A stretch of DNA of 64,000 nt, from the NCBI GenBank assembly GCA_041651455.1, contig JBAZJG010000002.1, positions 49,431 to 113,430 on the forward strand, read 5' to 3'. This DNA is from Candidatus Omnitrophota bacterium. GTDB taxonomy: Bacteria; Omnitrophota; Gorgyraeia; Pluralincolimonadales; Pluralincolimonadaceae. The notes beneath the pieces were generated by a model. It was not told the DNA's origin. It searched no databases and was given only the letters and a program-made list of their open reading frames with translations. Shown here in pieces: positions 9,826 through 55,679 of the stretch. The first letter of the stretch is position 1. Each line of letters opens with the position of its first letter. The position numbers and the translations under genes are program-made.

Positions 9826-9860
9826 TGGTGTATAATAAGGAAAAAAGGAGAGCGGCTAAG

Positions 9861-10409
9861 ATGAAAAGGTCAATCGTTGCGGCGGCGATCATGGCGGCAT
9901 TTTTATTCATAAACACGAACGGAGGAGCGTTTGCTATGGAAGGAAAGACCGTAGTGCTGGAGACGACGCAGGGGAATATCGAGATAGAACTAATGCCCGG
10001 AATCGCGCCGAAAACATGCGAGAACTTCACGACGCTGGTCGAGAAGGGCTATTATAACGGCATAACATTCCACAGGGTAATAAAGGGCTTCATGATACAG
10101 GGCGGAGACCCGACGGGCACGGGAAGGGGCGGCGAGTCGTGCTGGGGCAAGCCGTTCGAGGACGAGGTAAGCAAGGACGTCGTCTTCGACAAGCCCGGGA
10201 TACTCGCGATGGCGAACGCCGGGCCGTGCACGAACGGAAGCCAGTTCTTTATCACGACGATTCCCACGCCGTGGCTTAACGGCAAGCACACGATATTCGG
10301 GAAGGTGACGGCCGGATACGACGTCGTACAGAAGATAGAGAACACGCCTACCGGCAAGTTCGACAAGCCGAAAACGGAACAGAAGATAATAAAGGCATAT
10401 ATTAAATGA
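9861..10409 (+). CDS. Peptidyl-prolyl cis-trans isomerase, cyclophilin type (secreted)
   Basis: Cyclophilin signature [23 protein letters not shown]. Signal peptide starts at the ATG at 9861, which has an AAGGAG Shine-Dalgarno; the track's start at 9825 adds 12 aa with no Shine-Dalgarno. Confidence 0.9.
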
Positions 10410-11296
10410 ATCCCGACGAGAGCAGCCAGTCGTACGCGGCGGGCGTATCGTTCTGGGGCTCTATAGCCCTTTTCGCCGTCTCGGCGGCGGCGGGCCTCGC
10501 GGTCGATTCCGTTACGCTACTGCTGGACGCTTCGGCAAGCCTCGTAATACTGGTCGTCGCGTTCATGATGAACTCGACGATAAAGAAGATACACAGCCCG
10601 CCCGATGAGATATTCAATTTCGGCTACGAGAAATACGAGCCGTTCACGGTCGTCATCCAGGGCGCACTGATAATCACCACCTGCGTAATAAGCATGAAGT
10701 TCGCCCTGCAGGACATACTGCACCATGAGGACATAAAGAATTACCAGATACCCCTGATCGCGTCCGGAATATCGGTGGTGGTGGGGACGTTCATAGCCGT
10801 ATTCATCGGGATCACCGCTAAAAGGACCCGTTCCTCGATGATGCATGCCGCGAGCATGCACTGGTTCATAGATACCGGGATGTCGGTAGGCATGTTAGGC
10901 GGTTTCTACCTGGGCTCTGTTCTGAAGCAGAGGGGTTATACCGAAATAACCCCGTTCATCGACCCCGCGATGGCGATAATGCTGGCGCTGGTCTTTATAC
11001 TGCCGCCTTTAAAGGCCATGAGGAGGAACCTTCTCGAGCTCCTCGACGCGGTCCCGTCCAGGGAGATAAGGGACAGGGTAAGGAAGGTGGTCGACGAATA
11101 CAAGCCGAAGATGTTCGGAGTCCACAGGGTCAGGACGAGGAAGGCGGGCGAGAAGGTTTTCGTTGAGGTGTGCTTCATAGTGAAGGAGAACATGACCCTG
11201 AATGAAGCCGAGGCGATCGCCTCGGCCTTCGAGAAGGACTTAAAGACCCACCTGCACCATATCGACGCAGTAGTCTACTTCAAGCCTACAAAATAG
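10406..11296 (+). CDS. Cation diffusion facilitator (CDF) family transporter
   Basis: Six TM segments plus a C-terminal cytoplasmic domain. Typical CDF layout ([14 protein letters not shown]...; [13 protein letters not shown]). Confidence 0.85.
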
Positions 11297-35419: not shown

Positions 35420-36772
35420 ATGCAGAAGAACGCCATACTTAAAGCCATAGAGGGTTTCTTTAAGTTTGGGGAGAACAGGACAGATCTCAAGACAGAGGCC
35501 ATCGCCGGGATAACGACGTTCATGACGATGGCCTATATTATTTTCGTCAACCCGGCGATGATATCGCAGGCCGGGATGGATTTCGGTTCCGCGATGACGG
35601 CGACCTGCGCGGCCGCGGCCTTCGCGACGATAATGATGGGCCTTTACGCGAATTATCCCATTGCGCTGGCCCCGGGGATGGGCGAGAACGCGTTCTTCAC
35701 TTATACGGTCTGCATCACGATGGGCATACCCTGGCAGGTGGCCCTCGGGTGCGTCTTCATCACCGGCGTCCTGTTCATCATACTTACGCTTACGAACATC
35801 AGGCAGATGCTCATCGAGGCGATCCCGGCTGCGATAAGGTCGTCGATCGCGTGCGGCATAGGCCTGCTGATAGCTTTTGTGGGGCTCAAGGACGCGGGGA
35901 TCATCGTCGCGCAACCCGCTACATTCGTGACGCTCGGCGACCTCGTGAGCAAACCGACCGCCCTCGCGGTGTTCGGGCTCATACTTACGAGCGTGATGCT
36001 CGTAAAGAAGGTAAGGGGAGCGATGCTGTGGGGGATCCTCGTGACCGCCGTCGTCGGCATACCGCTCGAGATCGTCAAATACCAGGGCTTCATGTCGCCG
36101 CCGCCGTCGATGGCGCCGACCTTCATGCAGATGGACGTGTTAGGCGCGCTGAAGATGGGCCTGTTGACGGTCATCTTCATATTCCTGTTCATGGATATCT
36201 TCGATACGGTCGGGACGCTCGCCGGCGTCGCGGAGCTCGGCGGTTTCATGAAGAACGGCAAGATGCCCCGCGTCGGCAGGGCGATGCTCTCCGATGCCGC
36301 CGGCACATGCGTCGGCGCGGCATTCGGCACCCCGACGGTCACGAGCTATATCGAGAGCGCCTCCGGCATAAGCAGCGGCGGGCGGACCGGGTTTACGAGC
36401 GTCGTGACCGCCATGTTTTTCATCGCGGCGATGTTCTTCTCGCCGCTCGTCAGGATGGTCGGCGGCGGGGTGGAGGTCTCCAAGGGCGTTTTCCTTTATC
36501 CCGTGACGGCGCCCGCGCTCATAATCGTCGGCTGCATGATGATGCAATCCATTACGAAGATCGACTGGAAAGATTACACCGAAGCCATACCCGCGTTCCT
36601 CGTAATGATAATGATGCCCTTGACCTTCAGCATCGCCTCGGGCGTCGCGATCGGCTTCATAAGCTTTGCCGCCATCAAATTCTTCAGCGGCAAGGGCCGG
36701 GACGTCTCCTGGCTCGTTTACATCCTCGCCGCGCTCTTCGTTCTCCGCTTCATCTACCTCCAAGCCAAGTAG
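35420..36772 (+). CDS. NCS2/AzgA-family purine (adenine/guanine/hypoxanthine) permease
   Basis: AzgA/PbuG-like N-terminus (TEAIAGITTFMTMAYIIFVNP) and about 13 TM. Confidence 0.8.
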   Translation: MQKNAILKAIEGFFKFGENRTDLKTEAIAGITTFMTMAYIIFVNPAMISQAGMDFGSAMTATCAAAAFATIMMGLYANYPIALAPGMGENAFFTYTVCITMGIPWQVALGCVFITGVLFIILTLTNIRQMLIEAIPAAIRSSIACGIGLLIAFVGLKDAGIIVAQPATFVTLGDLVSKPTALAVFGLILTSVMLVKKVRGAMLWGILVTAVVGIPLEIVKYQGFMSPPPSMAPTFMQMDVLGALKMGLLTVIFIFLFMDIFDTVGTLAGVAELGGFMKNGKMPRVGRAMLSDAAGTCVGAAFGTPTVTSYIESASGISSGGRTGFTSVVTAMFFIAAMFFSPLVRMVGGGVEVSKGVFLYPVTAPALIIVGCMMMQSITKIDWKDYTEAIPAFLVMIMMPLTFSIASGVAIGFISFAAIKFFSGKGRDVSWLVYILAALFVLRFIYLQAK

Positions 36773-36867
36773 GGAGCCATCCTCCGGGGGGACACCCTCG
36801 CAAAACAATTTGAAAGAAAACCATCTCCTTTTTCGTCTATTACGTATAAACAGAAAGGAGATTTGCC

Positions 36868-37452
36868 ATGCCAAGAAAACCCAGATGCCTGGTTGATGGC
36901 GGTTACTATCACATTATGAGCAGGGGACATAATAAATGTAAGTTATTCCATACCAGGAAGGATTATGAAAAATACAAGAGTTTGATAATTGAGCATAAAC
37001 GGACATTCCCCTGCGATATATACCATTATTGCCTGATGCCAAACCATGTCCATATCTTACTGAAAATTATGAATGGACGTAACTTGCCGGAACTCATGCA
37101 GCATATAAATCAGGAGTATGCAAGATATAGCAAAAGAAAACATGAAACTGTCGGCAATCTTTTTCAAGGGCGATACAAAGGTCTAATAATAGAAACAGAA
37201 GGATATCTTCTCGAATGCGGCAGGTATATTGAAAGGAATCCATTAAAAGCGGGACTTGAGACAGACCCGTCGCGATATATGTTTTCCAGCTATAGGTTCT
37301 ACGCGAAAGGGGAGGAGGATGATATGTTAACTCCCAATCCTCTTTTTGCGGAATTGTCTAGGTCCGAAGAAGAAAGGAGGAGAATCTACTCGGAATATGT
37401 GCTTAAAGAGAGGATGGAAGAGCATGTCAGAGACAGCAACTCTGGACCATAA
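36868..37452 (+). CDS. REP-associated tyrosine transposase (Y1 HuH, TnpA_REP)
   Basis: YHIMSRGH...YCLMPNHVHILL (HuH motif)...GRYIERNPLKAGL...Y motifs typical of IS200-like REP-associated transposases. Confidence 0.85.
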   Translation: MPRKPRCLVDGGYYHIMSRGHNKCKLFHTRKDYEKYKSLIIEHKRTFPCDIYHYCLMPNHVHILLKIMNGRNLPELMQHINQEYARYSKRKHETVGNLFQGRYKGLIIETEGYLLECGRYIERNPLKAGLETDPSRYMFSSYRFYAKGEEDDMLTPNPLFAELSRSEEERRRIYSEYVLKERMEEHVRDSNSGP

Positions 37453-37467
37453 GGAGCAAATGGAGGC

Positions 37468-37495
37468 CGAGGGTGTCCCCCCGGAGGATGGCTCC
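37468..37495 (-). repeat. REP element (inverted copy of 36773-36800)
   Basis: Exact reverse complement of the upstream 28-mer. Confidence 0.8.
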
Positions 37496-37507
37496 TTCTC
37501 TTTTTTC

Positions 37508-37540
37508 TTGACAAGTTATTGTGATTATGATAACTATAAT
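37508..37540 (+). promoter_or_regulatory. MerR-type-like promoter: -35 TTGACA (37508-37513), long 21-nt spacer containing the palindrome AGTTAT-N10-ATAACT (37514-37535), -10 TATAAT (37535-37540)
   Basis: Read from the sequence. A second identical-arm palindrome lies at 37568-37589 in the 5' leader of the downstream MerR-like gene. Confidence 0.45.
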
Positions 37541-37567
37541 ACAAAATATATGAATCATAAGAATAGC

Positions 37568-37589
37568 AGTTATGGTAATTACAATAACT
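37568..37589 (+). promoter_or_regulatory. Second AGTTAT-N10-ATAACT operator-like palindrome
   Basis: Arms identical to those of the palindrome at 37514-37535. Confidence 0.4.
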
Positions 37590-42094: not shown

Positions 42095-43282
42095 ATGAAG
42101 ACAAGCTTCGCGGTATTATACGCCTTGGTCATAATAATCCCGACGGCGCTGCTTGCGTATTTCGGGCTGCTGGCGGTGCGAAGCGAGAAGTCGATCGTCG
42201 AGAGGAACATGATGCAGAAGTACGAGGCGATGGCAGGCCTCGTGGAAGGCGAGTTCAATAAAGCGCTTTCGGAGGCGCAGAAGGACCTTCTCGATAACCC
42301 GAAATACGTCGAGCATATGATCATAGAGCAGTCGGCGATATTCAAGGAAGACGTCGCGATACTCGACATGAACGGTAAGTCGCTCAGCGACGAAAGGGGA
42401 TCGGGACCGGTCTTCGTAAAGCAGGTAAAGGGATTTCCGTACCAGATAGCGGTATACGAGCGTTACCCGGTGGTCCTCAGCAAGATAAACGAAAGGCGGC
42501 AGAACCTATCCTTATATATCGGCATCATATATATATCCGCGTTCATGATATTGAGCGGGGCATTCGTGACGCTCTGGGCATTGTCGAGGCAGTGGAACCT
42601 GGCGCACATGAAGAACGAGTTCGTCTCGCACCTCGCGCATGACCTGCGCAGGCCGCTTACTTCGATACGCATGTTCTCCGAGATGCTGAAGACCGGGCGT
42701 GTCGCGGACGACGGGAAAAGAGCGGAATATTACGGCATAATATCGAACGAAAGCGAGAAACTCACGTTGCTCGCGAACAATATACTCGATTTTTCGCGCA
42801 TAGAGATGGGGCGCAAGAATTACAGGATAAAGAAGGAAGACATCGCGCGCATAGTCAACGAGACGGTGGACAGGTTCAGGTCGTATATGGTCGACGTCCC
42901 GCGCCAGGTCTCCGTGGACATCGAGGAAGGCCTTCCGCCGGTAAACGCCGACGAGAGCGCGATATCGCAGGTCGTGATGAACCTGCTCACGAATGCGGCG
43001 AAATATTCCTCGCAGGACAGCATCATCAGCGTTAAAGTCGCGCGGACGGACAGGAGCGTCGCGGTCAGCGTCGTCGACCACGGCATAGGCGTCCCGAAGG
43101 GCGAGTTGAAGAGGATATTCAGGAAGTATTACCGCGTCGAGCAGGACAAGGTCTCATCCACCGAGGGAAGCGGCCTCGGGCTCACGCTCGTAAAGTATAT
43201 CGCGGAAGCCCACGGCGGGCAGATACGCGCGGAGAGCGAAGAAGGAAAGGGCAGCAGGTTCACGCTGATATTACCGGTATGA
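42095..43282 (+). CDS. Sensor histidine kinase (2 TM, HisKA plus HATPase_c)
   Basis: H-box FVSHLAHDLRRPLTSI; N, G1 and G2 boxes (NLLTNAAKY, DHGIGVP, GSGLGL). Confidence 0.85.
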   Translation: MKTSFAVLYALVIIIPTALLAYFGLLAVRSEKSIVERNMMQKYEAMAGLVEGEFNKALSEAQKDLLDNPKYVEHMIIEQSAIFKEDVAILDMNGKSLSDERGSGPVFVKQVKGFPYQIAVYERYPVVLSKINERRQNLSLYIGIIYISAFMILSGAFVTLWALSRQWNLAHMKNEFVSHLAHDLRRPLTSIRMFSEMLKTGRVADDGKRAEYYGIISNESEKLTLLANNILDFSRIEMGRKNYRIKKEDIARIVNETVDRFRSYMVDVPRQVSVDIEEGLPPVNADESAISQVVMNLLTNAAKYSSQDSIISVKVARTDRSVAVSVVDHGIGVPKGELKRIFRKYYRVEQDKVSSTEGSGLGLTLVKYIAEAHGGQIRAESEEGKGSRFTLILPV

Positions 43283-43306
43283 GGGTGTCCCCCTTGAGGA
43301 TGGCTC
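43281..43306 (+). repeat. REP-like element copy (gagggtgtcccccttgaggatggctc)
   Basis: Differs at two positions from the 37469-37494 copy; sits at the stop of the kinase gene. Confidence 0.6.
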
Positions 43307-43312
43307 TGAAGA

Positions 43313-44007: not shown

Positions 44008-44880
44008 ATGAGGCGGATACTATTTTTTATTATGATGTTTATTGCTTTAGGGTGGCTCCGAGCGGGATGGTCCCTTCCGGGGGACGCTGCGCAGCCCCAG
44101 GATTATGTCGTGGCGACGGTCGGGAATGAGAAGATAATGTTCTCAGAGATACAAAAAGCGGCGGAGGGGCTGAACAGGTTCCTGAAAGAGAACTTTAGCG
44201 GGTACAGGGAATACAGGCTGGATTTTATCAGGCAGTATGTGGCCAGGTATGCCTTGGCAAAGAAGGCGCTCAGGGAAGGCCTGGACAAAGATAAGGATGT
44301 CCAATACTCCATCGAGCAATCGAGGAGGACGATACTATCCGATAAGCTGATTTCGGAACGGTTAAATAAAGTGGAATTCACGCAGGAAGACGTAAAAAAA
44401 TATTATGAAGAGAACAAGGAGCGTTACAAAACCCCCGAAAAAGTGAAATTGAGCTATATAAAGAAGAGCGGCAAGGCTGAAGCGGAGAAGATATCCGCGC
44501 GGCTGAATAAAGGGGAGAGCTTCGAAAAGGTCGGCCGTAAGGAGATCGTCAAGCTGGACAAGTGGATATCCGCAGGTTCGCTGCCGGAAGTGCCGGACCT
44601 GCTGAATATCGACCAGGCCTCGCTTAACCGGGTGGTATCGCTCGGCGTAGGAGGGTGCAGCCAGGTCATAACGATACCGGAAGGCCTTGCCCGGAAGGAG
44701 ATGTACTTCATATTCCGCGTTGACGCAAAAGAGGCGGCGAAGGATAGGCCGCTCGAGGAAATCAGGGGACAGGCCGAACTCGAATATGCGGGTATGTTAA
44801 GGAACAAGATCGTGAACGAAGTCATTATGGAAACCTTTAAGGAAGAGAAGGTCTCCATAAACGAAAAGGAAATAAAATAA
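44008..44880 (+). CDS. Periplasmic peptidyl-prolyl isomerase/chaperone, SurA/PpiC (parvulin)-like
   Basis: Signal peptide, SurA_N-like helical region and a parvulin-like segment; moderate resemblance only. Confidence 0.5.
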   Translation: MRRILFFIMMFIALGWLRAGWSLPGDAAQPQDYVVATVGNEKIMFSEIQKAAEGLNRFLKENFSGYREYRLDFIRQYVARYALAKKALREGLDKDKDVQYSIEQSRRTILSDKLISERLNKVEFTQEDVKKYYEENKERYKTPEKVKLSYIKKSGKAEAEKISARLNKGESFEKVGRKEIVKLDKWISAGSLPEVPDLLNIDQASLNRVVSLGVGGCSQVITIPEGLARKEMYFIFRVDAKEAAKDRPLEEIRGQAELEYAGMLRNKIVNEVIMETFKEEKVSINEKEIK

Positions 44881-44905
44881 AGGTGTCCCCCGGGTGCATG
44901 GCCCC
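44881..44905 (+). repeat. REP-like element copy (aggtgtcccccgggtgcatggcccc)
   Basis: Shares the GGTGTCCCCC core with the other REP copies; immediately follows the stop codon. Confidence 0.5.
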
Positions 44906-55650: not shown

Positions 55651-55679
55651 GGGGACACCCTGTCTCTCAGGATGTCCCC
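55651..55679 (+). repeat. Palindromic REP-like element (GGGGACACCCT-N7-AGGATGTCCCC) just after the giant gene's stop
   Basis: Imperfect 11-bp hairpin with arms related to both halves of the REP copies that flank the transposase. Confidence 0.6.

Follow-up and report, generated by a model that had tools for sequence, protein, structure and literature searches.

We analysed a 64,000-nt stretch of the Candidatus Omnitrophota contig JBAZJG010000002.1 (the window), in which a gene for a Y1 HuH tyrosine transposase-like protein is enclosed by two inverted copies of a 28-nt sequence. Coordinates are window positions, and L-numbers (L056-L156) denote comparison loci that hold relatives or pattern matches. 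The left arm, GGAGCCATCCTCCGGGGGGACACCCTCG, occupies 36773-36800 on the plus strand, and the right arm is its exact reverse complement at 37468-37495 on the minus strand. The two arms are 100% complementary over 28 nt and 667 nt apart. A single open reading frame (ORF) lies between them (36868-37452, plus strand); it encodes 194 aa and has a GC content of 0.41 and a GC content at third codon positions (GC3) of 0.44. The perfect inverted pair around a Y1 HuH gene described in the initial annotation was thus reproduced, with a Pfam Y1_Tnp match of 56 bits.

This cassette is located between BioY (or a permease gene) and a MerR-AAA_22-secretin operon. In the window, L138 and L152, a Xan_ur_permease gene (35420-36772 in the window) stands between BioY and the cassette, and it is absent in L117, L118, L151 and L156. 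Directly 5' of the left arm is a GTAG foot (36769-36772, plus strand), whose TAG (36770-36772) doubles as the stop codon of the upstream Xan_ur_permease gene. An (A/G/C)TAG abuts the left arm in 10 of the 12 loci examined, while the right arm is preceded by none.

The arms are bipartite. In the left arm the outer half-site GGAGCCATCCTC (36773-36784) and the inner half-site GGGGACACCCTC (36788-36799) are direct repeats agreeing at 9 of 12 positions, and the inner one carries a GGGGWSAS-type core, GGGGACAC, at 36788-36795. As the 28-mer is non-palindromic, the repeats are not canonical repetitive extragenic palindromic (REP) sequences, which combine a GT[AG]G foot with a stable hairpin in each repeat. 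The name REP given to them at first had therefore to be replaced: they are non-palindromic terminal inverted repeats (TIRs) with a GGGGACAC core, of the TIRtron/TIRYT class. In the passages of Di Nocera, De Gregorio & Rocco (2013; PMC3733652) that describe them, TIRtrons and TIRYTs are genes resembling REP-associated tyrosine transposases (RAYTs) that lie between long TIRs instead of GTAG REPs. The same passages state that many TIRs share GGGGWSAS and that the families are moderately abundant, occurring as singles, dimers and groups.

Between the left arm and the start codon lies a conserved leader (36801-36867, plus strand), which contains a TTGAAAG box, then an anti-Shine-Dalgarno segment, then the Shine-Dalgarno segment. 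The anti-Shine-Dalgarno segment (36823-36832) pairs with the Shine-Dalgarno segment (36853-36862) directly before the ATG. This pairing is the RNAalifold consensus of 11 loci, with 10 pairs, 4 of them showing compensatory double changes. In IS200 a hairpin of the 5' leader occludes the Shine-Dalgarno sequence, and the window leader is similar. An Rfam search of the cassette, leader included, gave no match except a sub-threshold chance hit to a CRISPR repeat, and a promoter scan of the plus strand upstream of the Y1 ATG gave no convincing sigma-70 promoter. No tnpB adjoins the Y1 gene.

At the right end, the outer half of the right arm can form a short stem followed by a T-run, a weak terminator-like site (37483-37508, plus strand). 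With 1.1 sites expected, the single one detected by the terminator consensus scan is not significant alone; its T-run 3' of the right arm is kept in L117, L118, L151, L152 and L154. Just beyond the right arm, a MerR-type promoter was recognised at 37505-37589, with TTGACA, a 21-nt spacer holding the palindromic operator AGTTATTGTGATTATGATAACT, and TATAAT. A second operator copy lies at 37568-37589, and the promoter region is strongly conserved in all relatives; it accounts for the low-GC stretch that runs past the right arm.

The Pfam Y1_Tnp (PF01797) score of 56.1 bits, against a gathering cutoff of 23, places the protein in the Y1 HuH superfamily. An identical protein is annotated in a Candidatus Omnitrophota metagenome-assembled genome, and about 800 homologs were found, mostly of about 194 aa and mostly from Omnitrophota. 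The window protein shows the HuH motif N59-H60-V-H62, F99-Q100, Y120-IERNP125 with the catalytic tyrosine, and S140-S141. In a 19-sequence alignment N59-H60-x-H62, F/Y99-Q100, Y120-I-E-R-N-P125 and S140-S141 are invariant. The tyrosine motif YIERNP (residues 120-125) has the class 2 form Y---NP and not the IS200 form Y---Q, a distinction drawn in the classification passages of Quentin et al. 2018 (PMC6006769), where IS200/IS605 elements are given as lacking terminal inverted repeats. Meanwhile, the NCBIfam IS200 model scored 20.4 bits (cutoff 55), far under the 66.4 bits of the REP_Tyr_transpos model (NF047646).

Structural comparison pointed the same way. The only PDB sequence match was E. 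coli TnpA_REP (4ER8), with 21% identity. The AlphaFold2 model (predicted local distance difference test, 87.6) had as its best PDB fold match 4er8_A, TnpA_REP bound to a REP hairpin (E 1.5e-9, template modelling score 0.74), while fold matches to IS200, ISDra2 and IS608 were weaker (E about 5e-6). Its tail is short and helical, and disordered past residue 186. As judged from the sequence, a RAYT-like, non-IS200 Y1 HuH enzyme is supported, and the RAYT-type motifs recorded in the initial annotation stand (NHVH, FQ and YIERNP; 66 bits for REP_Tyr_transpos vs 20 bits for IS200; 4ER8 as best match). The outcome which that annotation had set against its own proposal, a classical IS200 transposase with standard ends, was rejected: the YIERNP motif, the 20-bit IS200 score and the end structure, a perfect TIR, all disagree with it. 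The IS200/IS605 hallmarks of a Y---Q motif, ends without TIRs and a tnpB partner were likewise not found, nor does the window contain the near-identical further copies usual for such elements.

Passages of Quentin et al. 2018 (PMC6006769) assign most TIRYTs to TnpA_Y1 subclass 2.1 (Bertels Group 1). They characterise it by NHVH, FQ or W[EQ], YIELNP, an SS tail, a median length of 238 aa and a C-terminal helix-turn-helix (HTH; Bac_DnaA_C/HTH_23/HTH_28-like). The window protein has the motifs (N59-H-V-H62, F99-Q100, YIERNP, S140-S141), but neither the length nor the HTH, so that subclass 2.1/Group 1 would be its closest class, assigned by motifs only. The ratio of nonsynonymous to synonymous divergence (dN/dS) is 0.08 for the window against L138 and 0.07 for L118 against L143. 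Therefore, the protein is maintained by strong purifying selection. Phage and plasmid collections held no close relative, the best matches being 39% identical on plasmids and 25% in one phage record.

We compared neighbourhoods of relatives from 95% down to 49% identical to the window protein. Almost all of them share one layout: an (A/G)TAG foot, a bipartite arm of 25-30 nt, the conserved leader, a low-GC gene and the inverted arm. Perfect or near-perfect inverted arms surround Y1 in the window, L117, L118, L121, L123, L125, L138, L143/L093, L152 and L154; the exceptions to the layout are L127, with a weak inverted pair, and L151, with a chimeric left arm.

One chromosomal site holds three arm types: type 1 in the window (GGAGCCATCCTC-CGG-GGGGACACCCTC), type 2 flanking Y1 in L117 (GGGGCCATGCAC-TAA-GGGGACACCC) and type 3 in L152 (GGGGCCATACAC-TTA-GGGGACACACCTC). 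Within a locus, 22-26 of 26 positions agree between the left and right arm, whereas between alleles only 12-21 do. For 6 of the 7 positions at which the left arms of the window and L117 differ, the right arms show the corresponding change. The GGGGACAC core is present in arm types 1-3, and the distant alleles L123 and L125 deviate from it (GGTGCCAC and GGGGACGG). Two proteobacterial relatives of 33-37% identity (R. rubrum, Iodobacter plasmids) are also flanked by inverted repeats, which contain GGGGTCAG. A link to the TIRtrons is supported by these GGGGWSAS-type inverted repeats around proteobacterial Y1 relatives.

Such arms might instead belong to another system altogether, for example as Xer/dif-like 28-bp module boundaries between two of which the Y1 gene merely landed. 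The 28-nt bipartite arms are indeed inverted around a small cassette, toxin-antitoxin genes follow arm-plus-leader modules in L134 and L062, and the arm-bounded cassette presumably bears a superficial likeness to pdif modules. However, the half-sites are direct repeats, whereas dif half-sites are inverted, and the arm type follows the Y1 allele; for these two reasons the Xer/pdif analogy was set aside. The GGGG[AT][CG]A[CG] core and the inverted arms also recur with the proteobacterial Y1 genes (33-37% identity) and in published TIRYTs. No recombinase gene stands beside the cassette in the syntenic loci, and the distant L127, in another context, has an integrase-N-terminal-like ORF upstream. 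We therefore regard it as very improbable that the repeats belong to another system.

Several further observations concern the arms and their surroundings. The left arm of L151 (3140-3180) has an intact outer half-site followed by GGGGCTGCGAAGCGTCCCTCGC in place of the GGGGACAC half. As GGGGCTGCGAAGCGTCCCTCGC also occurs beside a lone GGGGGACACCC core in L118 (270-300), it suggests a second small repeat family. Tandem junction motifs were seen left of the left arm in L117 (9880-9907, AAGTAG-T-AAGTAG), L118 (2085-2107, AATAGGGA-AAATAGGGA), L143 (12622-12640, minus strand, GTAGG-GTAGG-TAGG) and L125 (9845-9865, GAAAATAG twice); these might mark repeated cleavage or insertion events, or serve as spare targets. 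In L121 (56% identity), extra partial or tandem arm copies on both sides of Y1 (9840-9903 and 10589-10680) form a small cluster similar to a bacterial interspersed mosaic element (BIME), which includes upstream repeats of ATGCACGGGGCCATCC and, downstream, another complete arm. The Y1 genes of L123, L125 and L127 are flanked by PhdYeFM/ParE or Fic/HTH_17 toxin-antitoxin genes, RHS/YD-repeat toxins with immunity genes, TIR-domain genes and giant Laminin_G_3 proteins. These contexts are variable, defence-like regions rather than the MerR-secretin site.

The Y1 site itself is fixed. Relatives as distant as 56% identity have the gene there, and so do 10 of 10 backbones that encode the identical MerR and include sequence upstream. 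An empty site was sought among the backbones with identical MerR and none was found, all 10 carrying Y1, in some cases truncated. Decaying alleles sit on intact backbones: L152 (2772-3233) has an in-frame deletion that leaves 153 aa without the HuH motif, and L155 (856-1278) is 5'-truncated to 140 aa.

On these backbones the cassette has a history of its own. Between the window and L117, synonymous divergence (dS) of the flanking genes is 0.29-0.49 and the MerR promoter is identical at 106 of 113 positions, while the Y1 genes are synonymously saturated (proportion of synonymous differences, 0.75) and 75% identical. Identity is 50-88% before the outer end of the right arm and 88-100% after it, the switch falling within about 6 nt of that end, and identity to L152, too, regains backbone level there within about 6 nt. 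Between flanks exactly those of the window (...CCAAGTAG / cassette / T-run-TTGACAAG), L152 has arms of type 3 and another allele. Across eight loci the flanks are 86-97% identical (89-97% in the clade of the window), and Y1 is either concordant with the backbone or merely 70-76% identical. Concordant pairs, Y1 vs flank, are window-L138 (94% vs 93%), L118-L143 (95% vs 96%) and L151 with L118/L143 (88-89% vs 87-88%). Because such pairs exist, local hypermutation, for example through single-strand exposure, was rejected as a cause of the divergence and of the low GC content; in the window-L138 pair cassette and flanks are both at about 94%. In total, close relatives have at this one site no fewer than five cassette alleles, deeply diverged from one another and with three types of arm. 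Since the divergence is bounded by the arms on near-identical backbones, several replacements of the arm-to-arm unit have taken place, whether through homologous recombination among old alleles or through exchange mediated by the element.

Replacement at the arm ends might be taken as the work of an autonomous, currently mobile insertion sequence (IS) whose ends are the arms, which inserts site-specifically 3' of TAG and whose dispersed copies are solo ends or miniature inverted-repeat transposable elements (MITEs). The TAG foot at the left end alone resembles the asymmetric target/left end of IS200/IS605, the difference between near-identical backbones is an arm-to-arm unit bounded at the arm ends, and footprints could explain the tandem junction motifs to the left of the arm. 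Members at 49-53% identity also lie in unrelated contexts beside toxin-antitoxin or RHS genes, and distant relatives are found on plasmids. Such an element is nevertheless unlikely. Its position is constant in all 10 identical-MerR backbones and in relatives to 56% identity, with no empty site, and neither the 64-kb window nor the loci compared hold a near-identical second copy. Each protein cluster was seen on 1-2 contigs, and between closely similar loci (window-L138, L118-L143) cassette and flanks have been inherited together. The IS200/IS605 elements, as the relevant passages of PMC6006769 describe them, have no terminal inverted repeats and a Y---Q motif.

The initial annotation had also drawn attention to a transposase gene of about 40% GC in richer surroundings, which proved correct (0.41 vs 0.55 for the window). 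The Y1 gene has a GC content of 0.34-0.43 in every relative, against 0.40-0.55 for the hosts. In three syntenic orthologs, whose mutual synonymous sites are saturated, GC3 is 0.43-0.45 vs 0.68-0.82 in all neighbouring genes. Recent acquisition was therefore rejected as the cause: the family is AT-rich throughout, and orthologs with saturated dS hold their GC3 at 0.43-0.45. The proposal of a recent replacement consequently fails for the gene alone, whereas it applies to the whole arm-bounded cassette, which was swapped between close relatives. In the two proteobacterial relatives checked, Y1 GC is host-like, so the low-GC offset is peculiar to the present family. The Y1 GC3 of 0.44 is close to the pooled intergenic GC of the window (0.45). 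A separate history of the cassette, with synonymous sites at the level of non-coding DNA, probably accounts for the low-GC gene, and the GC-rich arms are probably held by functional constraint on the recognition motif. The steady GC3 offset of about 0.3 from the host is a small puzzle on cassette evolution.

Elsewhere in the window, at 199-2952, four co-directional ORFs have a GC content of 0.31-0.36 and GC3 of 0.23-0.30, where the medians for the window are 0.56 and 0.76. Pfam matched one of them to DUF6941 and gave nothing for the rest. This region looks like a low-GC island and is probably foreign.

Arm sequences recur away from the Y1 gene. The window has 5 occurrences of the 9-mer core GGGGACACC where 0.35 are expected, and none of 100 shuffles had as many. 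Full-length arm copies with at most 7 mismatches number 4, vs 0.00 in shuffles, namely the two flanking arms and two singlets. One singlet (43280-43307, minus strand, type 1, 4 mismatches) overlaps the TGA stop of a HisKA kinase gene and sits in a 30-nt gap upstream of a response-regulator gene. The other, GCCATGCAC (44878-44905, minus strand, type 2-like), overlaps the TAA stop of a gene for a PPIC-type peptidyl-prolyl isomerase (PPIase); it has 7 mismatches to type 1 and 5 to type 2, and the Y1 gene of L117 has the same arm subtype. In addition, a short palindrome, GGGGACACCCT-N7-AGGATGTCCCC (55651-55679), begins 7 nt past the stop of a 3547-aa Laminin_G_3 gene. The related copies at or after the stops of the kinase, the PPIase and the giant gene had thus been correctly placed from the start, and Pfam confirmed the identities assigned to the neighbouring genes (kinase, PPIase).

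The palindrome at 55651-55679 folds at -11 kcal/mol (z -4.8), and its flanks (CAAT...GATAA) are common to a core palindrome in L118 (8602-8631, z -7.2). In both, the sequence is that of the inner core of an arm doublet arranged tail to tail, and hence of a reduced element resembling a REPIN, a hairpin-forming REP doublet. At the junction between the HisKA and response-regulator genes a singlet is found in the window, L118 has a core palindrome, and in L121 the genes overlap with no element; elements have therefore been gained or remodelled since the lineages split.

Outside the window, a strict metagenome scan with the pattern RGCCATCCTCNNNGGGGACACCCT returned 20 stretches, 13 of them from one metagenome. 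Fifteen matches are non-coding, in contigs of 52-56% GC, and most of these lie 0-20 nt from a stop codon. The other five (L129-L132, L148) were rejected as coding coincidences, in which GC-rich organisms encode the motif A-I-L-A-G-D-T-L-Y, presumably in a polyprenyl-synthase-like protein; they are a warning for repeat searches by pattern alone. Scanning genome contigs for a degenerate arm pattern of 17 bases mostly picked up chance hits from GC-rich genomes; among the matches listed, L056, L062, L093 and L102 alone proved relevant.

Tight tail-to-tail doublets were found in L135 (7-nt spacer), L137 (6), L056 (6) and L102 (7). When folded, the doublets of L056, L102 and L135 give 23-bp stems of -31 to -35 kcal/mol (z about -10). 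The L056 and L102 doublets lie on the 118-kb contig CAZYUB010000007.1, which also bears the Y1 cassette L151. The doublet form of a REPIN is thus seen in these four loci, and the window has only the shortened form at 55651-55679. The arms of the Y1 cassette have the same orientation as those of a doublet, the gene taking the place of the spacer.

These copies can also be read in another way, in which the protein is a domesticated host enzyme unrelated to repeat spread, the arms are cis-regulatory or insulating, and the copies are by-products of long standing, used by the host today as terminators or as hairpins that stabilise mRNA. Domestication has been proposed for Group 1 RAYTs, and strong purifying selection and a fixed position would suit it. 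Group 1/subclass 2.1 is moreover recorded as lacking a REP or REPIN association, with 16-mers of about 12 copies per replicon (PMC5581495; PMC6006769). The copies stand right after stops in a tightly packed co-directional gene array, the right arm with its T-run is like a weak terminator, and copy density is low. We nevertheless find this account rather doubtful. The arms change with the protein allele, in three types, as would be expected if the protein reads the arms and not of generic terminators. At unrelated loci the doublets form palindromes of 23 bp that are almost perfect and differ in their loops, as if a unit had been propagated. Singlets have neither hairpins nor T-runs and would make poor terminators.

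The cassette is probably a TIRtron, a REPtron relative flanked by TIRs, in which the gene of a Y1 HuH enzyme, sparingly translated, lies between inverted copies of its own recognition sequence and goes along with a modest population of doublets and their decay products. It comprises a RAYT-like gene with long non-GTAG TIRs (25-30 nt in most relatives, weak in L127), the TIR contains GGGGWSAS as GGGGACAC in arm types 1-3, and the TIR recurs elsewhere, as two singlets and one core palindrome in the window and as doublets on the contig of L151. By analogy with TnpA_REP and IS608/ISDra2, the two inverted arms would pair into a stem on single-stranded DNA, for example on the lagging-strand template. 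The enzyme might then bind this stem and cut near the foot via Tyr120, forming a 5'-phosphotyrosine link at the metal site coordinated by the HuH motif. It could copy or move doublets as non-autonomous MITE- or REPIN-like elements, and singlets may be decay products of doublets. The leader hairpin would keep translation of the enzyme low, as in IS200. The arm-to-arm cassette is itself a unit of exchange. A low copy number of the cassette would be expected from the RAYT analogy. While co-variation, dispersal, selection and fold were observed directly, the cleavage chemistry and a causal link between enzyme and repeats would be as in these related systems.

Several points weigh against a TIRtron. 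The NF047646 score lies under the equivalog cutoff of 80. Pfam detected Y1_Tnp only in the 194-aa protein and not the C-terminal HTH typical of subclass 2.1; the two proteobacterial relatives, of 234-235 aa, likewise gave Y1_Tnp only. Unlike known Y1 substrates, the 28-mer alone showed no significant hairpin or palindrome on folding (z -0.3 to -0.6). At about 1-2 per 100 kb, strict matches are sparse enough to imply tens and not hundreds of arm copies per genome, and as the protein-anchored samples all lie within 20 kb of the Y1 gene, dispersal might be local. The swapping could be ordinary homologous recombination of old polymorphism, in which the enzyme takes no part, and the link between enzyme and arms draws on co-variation and analogy.

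Arm and leader were also found without a Y1 gene, in three loci whose gene names were read off the sequences with no family search. In L134 (8260-8470, minus strand) an AbrB/RelE-like toxin-antitoxin pair comes next, with a TTGACA-N16-TAAAAT promoter of its own. L145 (531-1133) has an ORF6N-like gene exactly at the leader ATG, and L062 (2628-2840) has three unrelated hairpins, a leader remnant and a Gp49-like toxin. These arm-plus-leader remnants hint at further or former Y1 copies.

A bolder view of the cassette would make it an actively exchanging, site-specific single-stranded DNA element, which targets TAG (often a stop codon), circulates among Omnitrophota, seeds REPIN-like doublets and captures cargo. 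Its AT-rich composition would then be kept because it circulates independently of any one chromosome, and the left arm with the leader would be a reusable landing and expression module for toxin-antitoxin and ORF6N cargo (L134, L145, L062). We think this improbable. If true, a Group-1/2.1-type RAYT, viewed as immobile and repeat-less, would be a working mobile system with cargo turnover.

As a TIRtron, the cassette belongs to a kind of element that is already known, and the phylum is new: TIR-flanked RAYT-type systems are extended to Candidatus Omnitrophota, an uncultured PVC-related phylum. A literature search found no report linking Omnitrophota with RAYT or IS200. The statement that REP/RAYT systems are described mainly in proteobacteria was only partly borne out, as tagged REPs, RAYTs and TIRYTs had been reported in 8 phyla, including the Planctomycetes-Verrucomicrobia-Chlamydiae (PVC) superphylum, in the passages of PMC3733652 on their distribution. 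The data set comprises one fixed site, at least five alleles, three matched arm types, decayed copies and REPIN-like doublets. Co-variation of protein and arm and cassette-level replacement are thereby seen for group 2.1/Group 1, which the main surveys call not repeat-associated, and co-varying pairs of protein and arm alleles are what is needed for deciphering how these enzymes read DNA.

Compared with IS200/IS605 elements (IS200, IS608, ISDra2), the cassette shares the Y1 HuH fold and an asymmetric, target-like tetranucleotide at the left end. Those elements have Y---Q, subterminal hairpins and tnpB, whereas here Y---NP and TIRs are found and no tnpB adjoins. In the E. coli REPtron (TnpA_REP/YafM, 4ER8; REP/BIME) the gene is similarly placed between inverted cognate repeats, with a 5' (G)TAG and with repeats downstream of genes. 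E. coli REPs, however, are true hairpins, each with a GTAG foot, and number in the hundreds, while the present arms are not hairpins, have a foot at one end and are apparently much lower in copy number.

In the REPINs of Pseudomonas (Bertels & Rainey 2011; PMC3116915), inverted doublets are long hairpins and singlets look like decay products. In the 'orthoswitch' orthogroups of Nunvar et al. 2013 (PMC3686654), syntenic RAYTs of related strains are flanked by different REP classes, a precedent for the switching of arm types at the window site. The cassette resembles these systems in its doublet hairpins and singlets, its fixed locus and the different repeat classes at syntenic RAYTs. REPIN-RAYT systems belong to Group 2/3 and have GTAG REPs, large populations and a vertical, slow evolution, whereas here cassette alleles are synonymously saturated on backbones of 89-97% identity.

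For Group 1, Bertels et al. 2017 (PMC5581495) report flanking 16-mers at only about 12 copies per replicon, no REPIN association and hints of horizontal transfer, and the passages of PMC6006769 on subclass 2.1 record no REPs for it. The motifs (YIE[L/R]NP etc.), the wide and patchy distribution and the signs of horizontal transfer are common to that group and to the present family, for which a low copy number, as in that group, would also be expected. Theirs are proteins of 238 aa with an HTH and with no link to REPs or REPINs; here the protein has 194 aa and arm doublets are clear. With the TIRtrons, finally, the cassette has in common the Y1 gene within TIRs, the GGGGWSAS core, the dispersal of singles and dimers, and the conserved HuH and tyrosine. 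It differs from them in its phylum, Omnitrophota, in a bipartite arm with an outer half-site (GGRGCCAT...), in a TAG foot at the left end only, in a protein of 194 aa, and in the persistent AT-richness of its gene compared with the host, which the two proteobacterial examples checked do not show.

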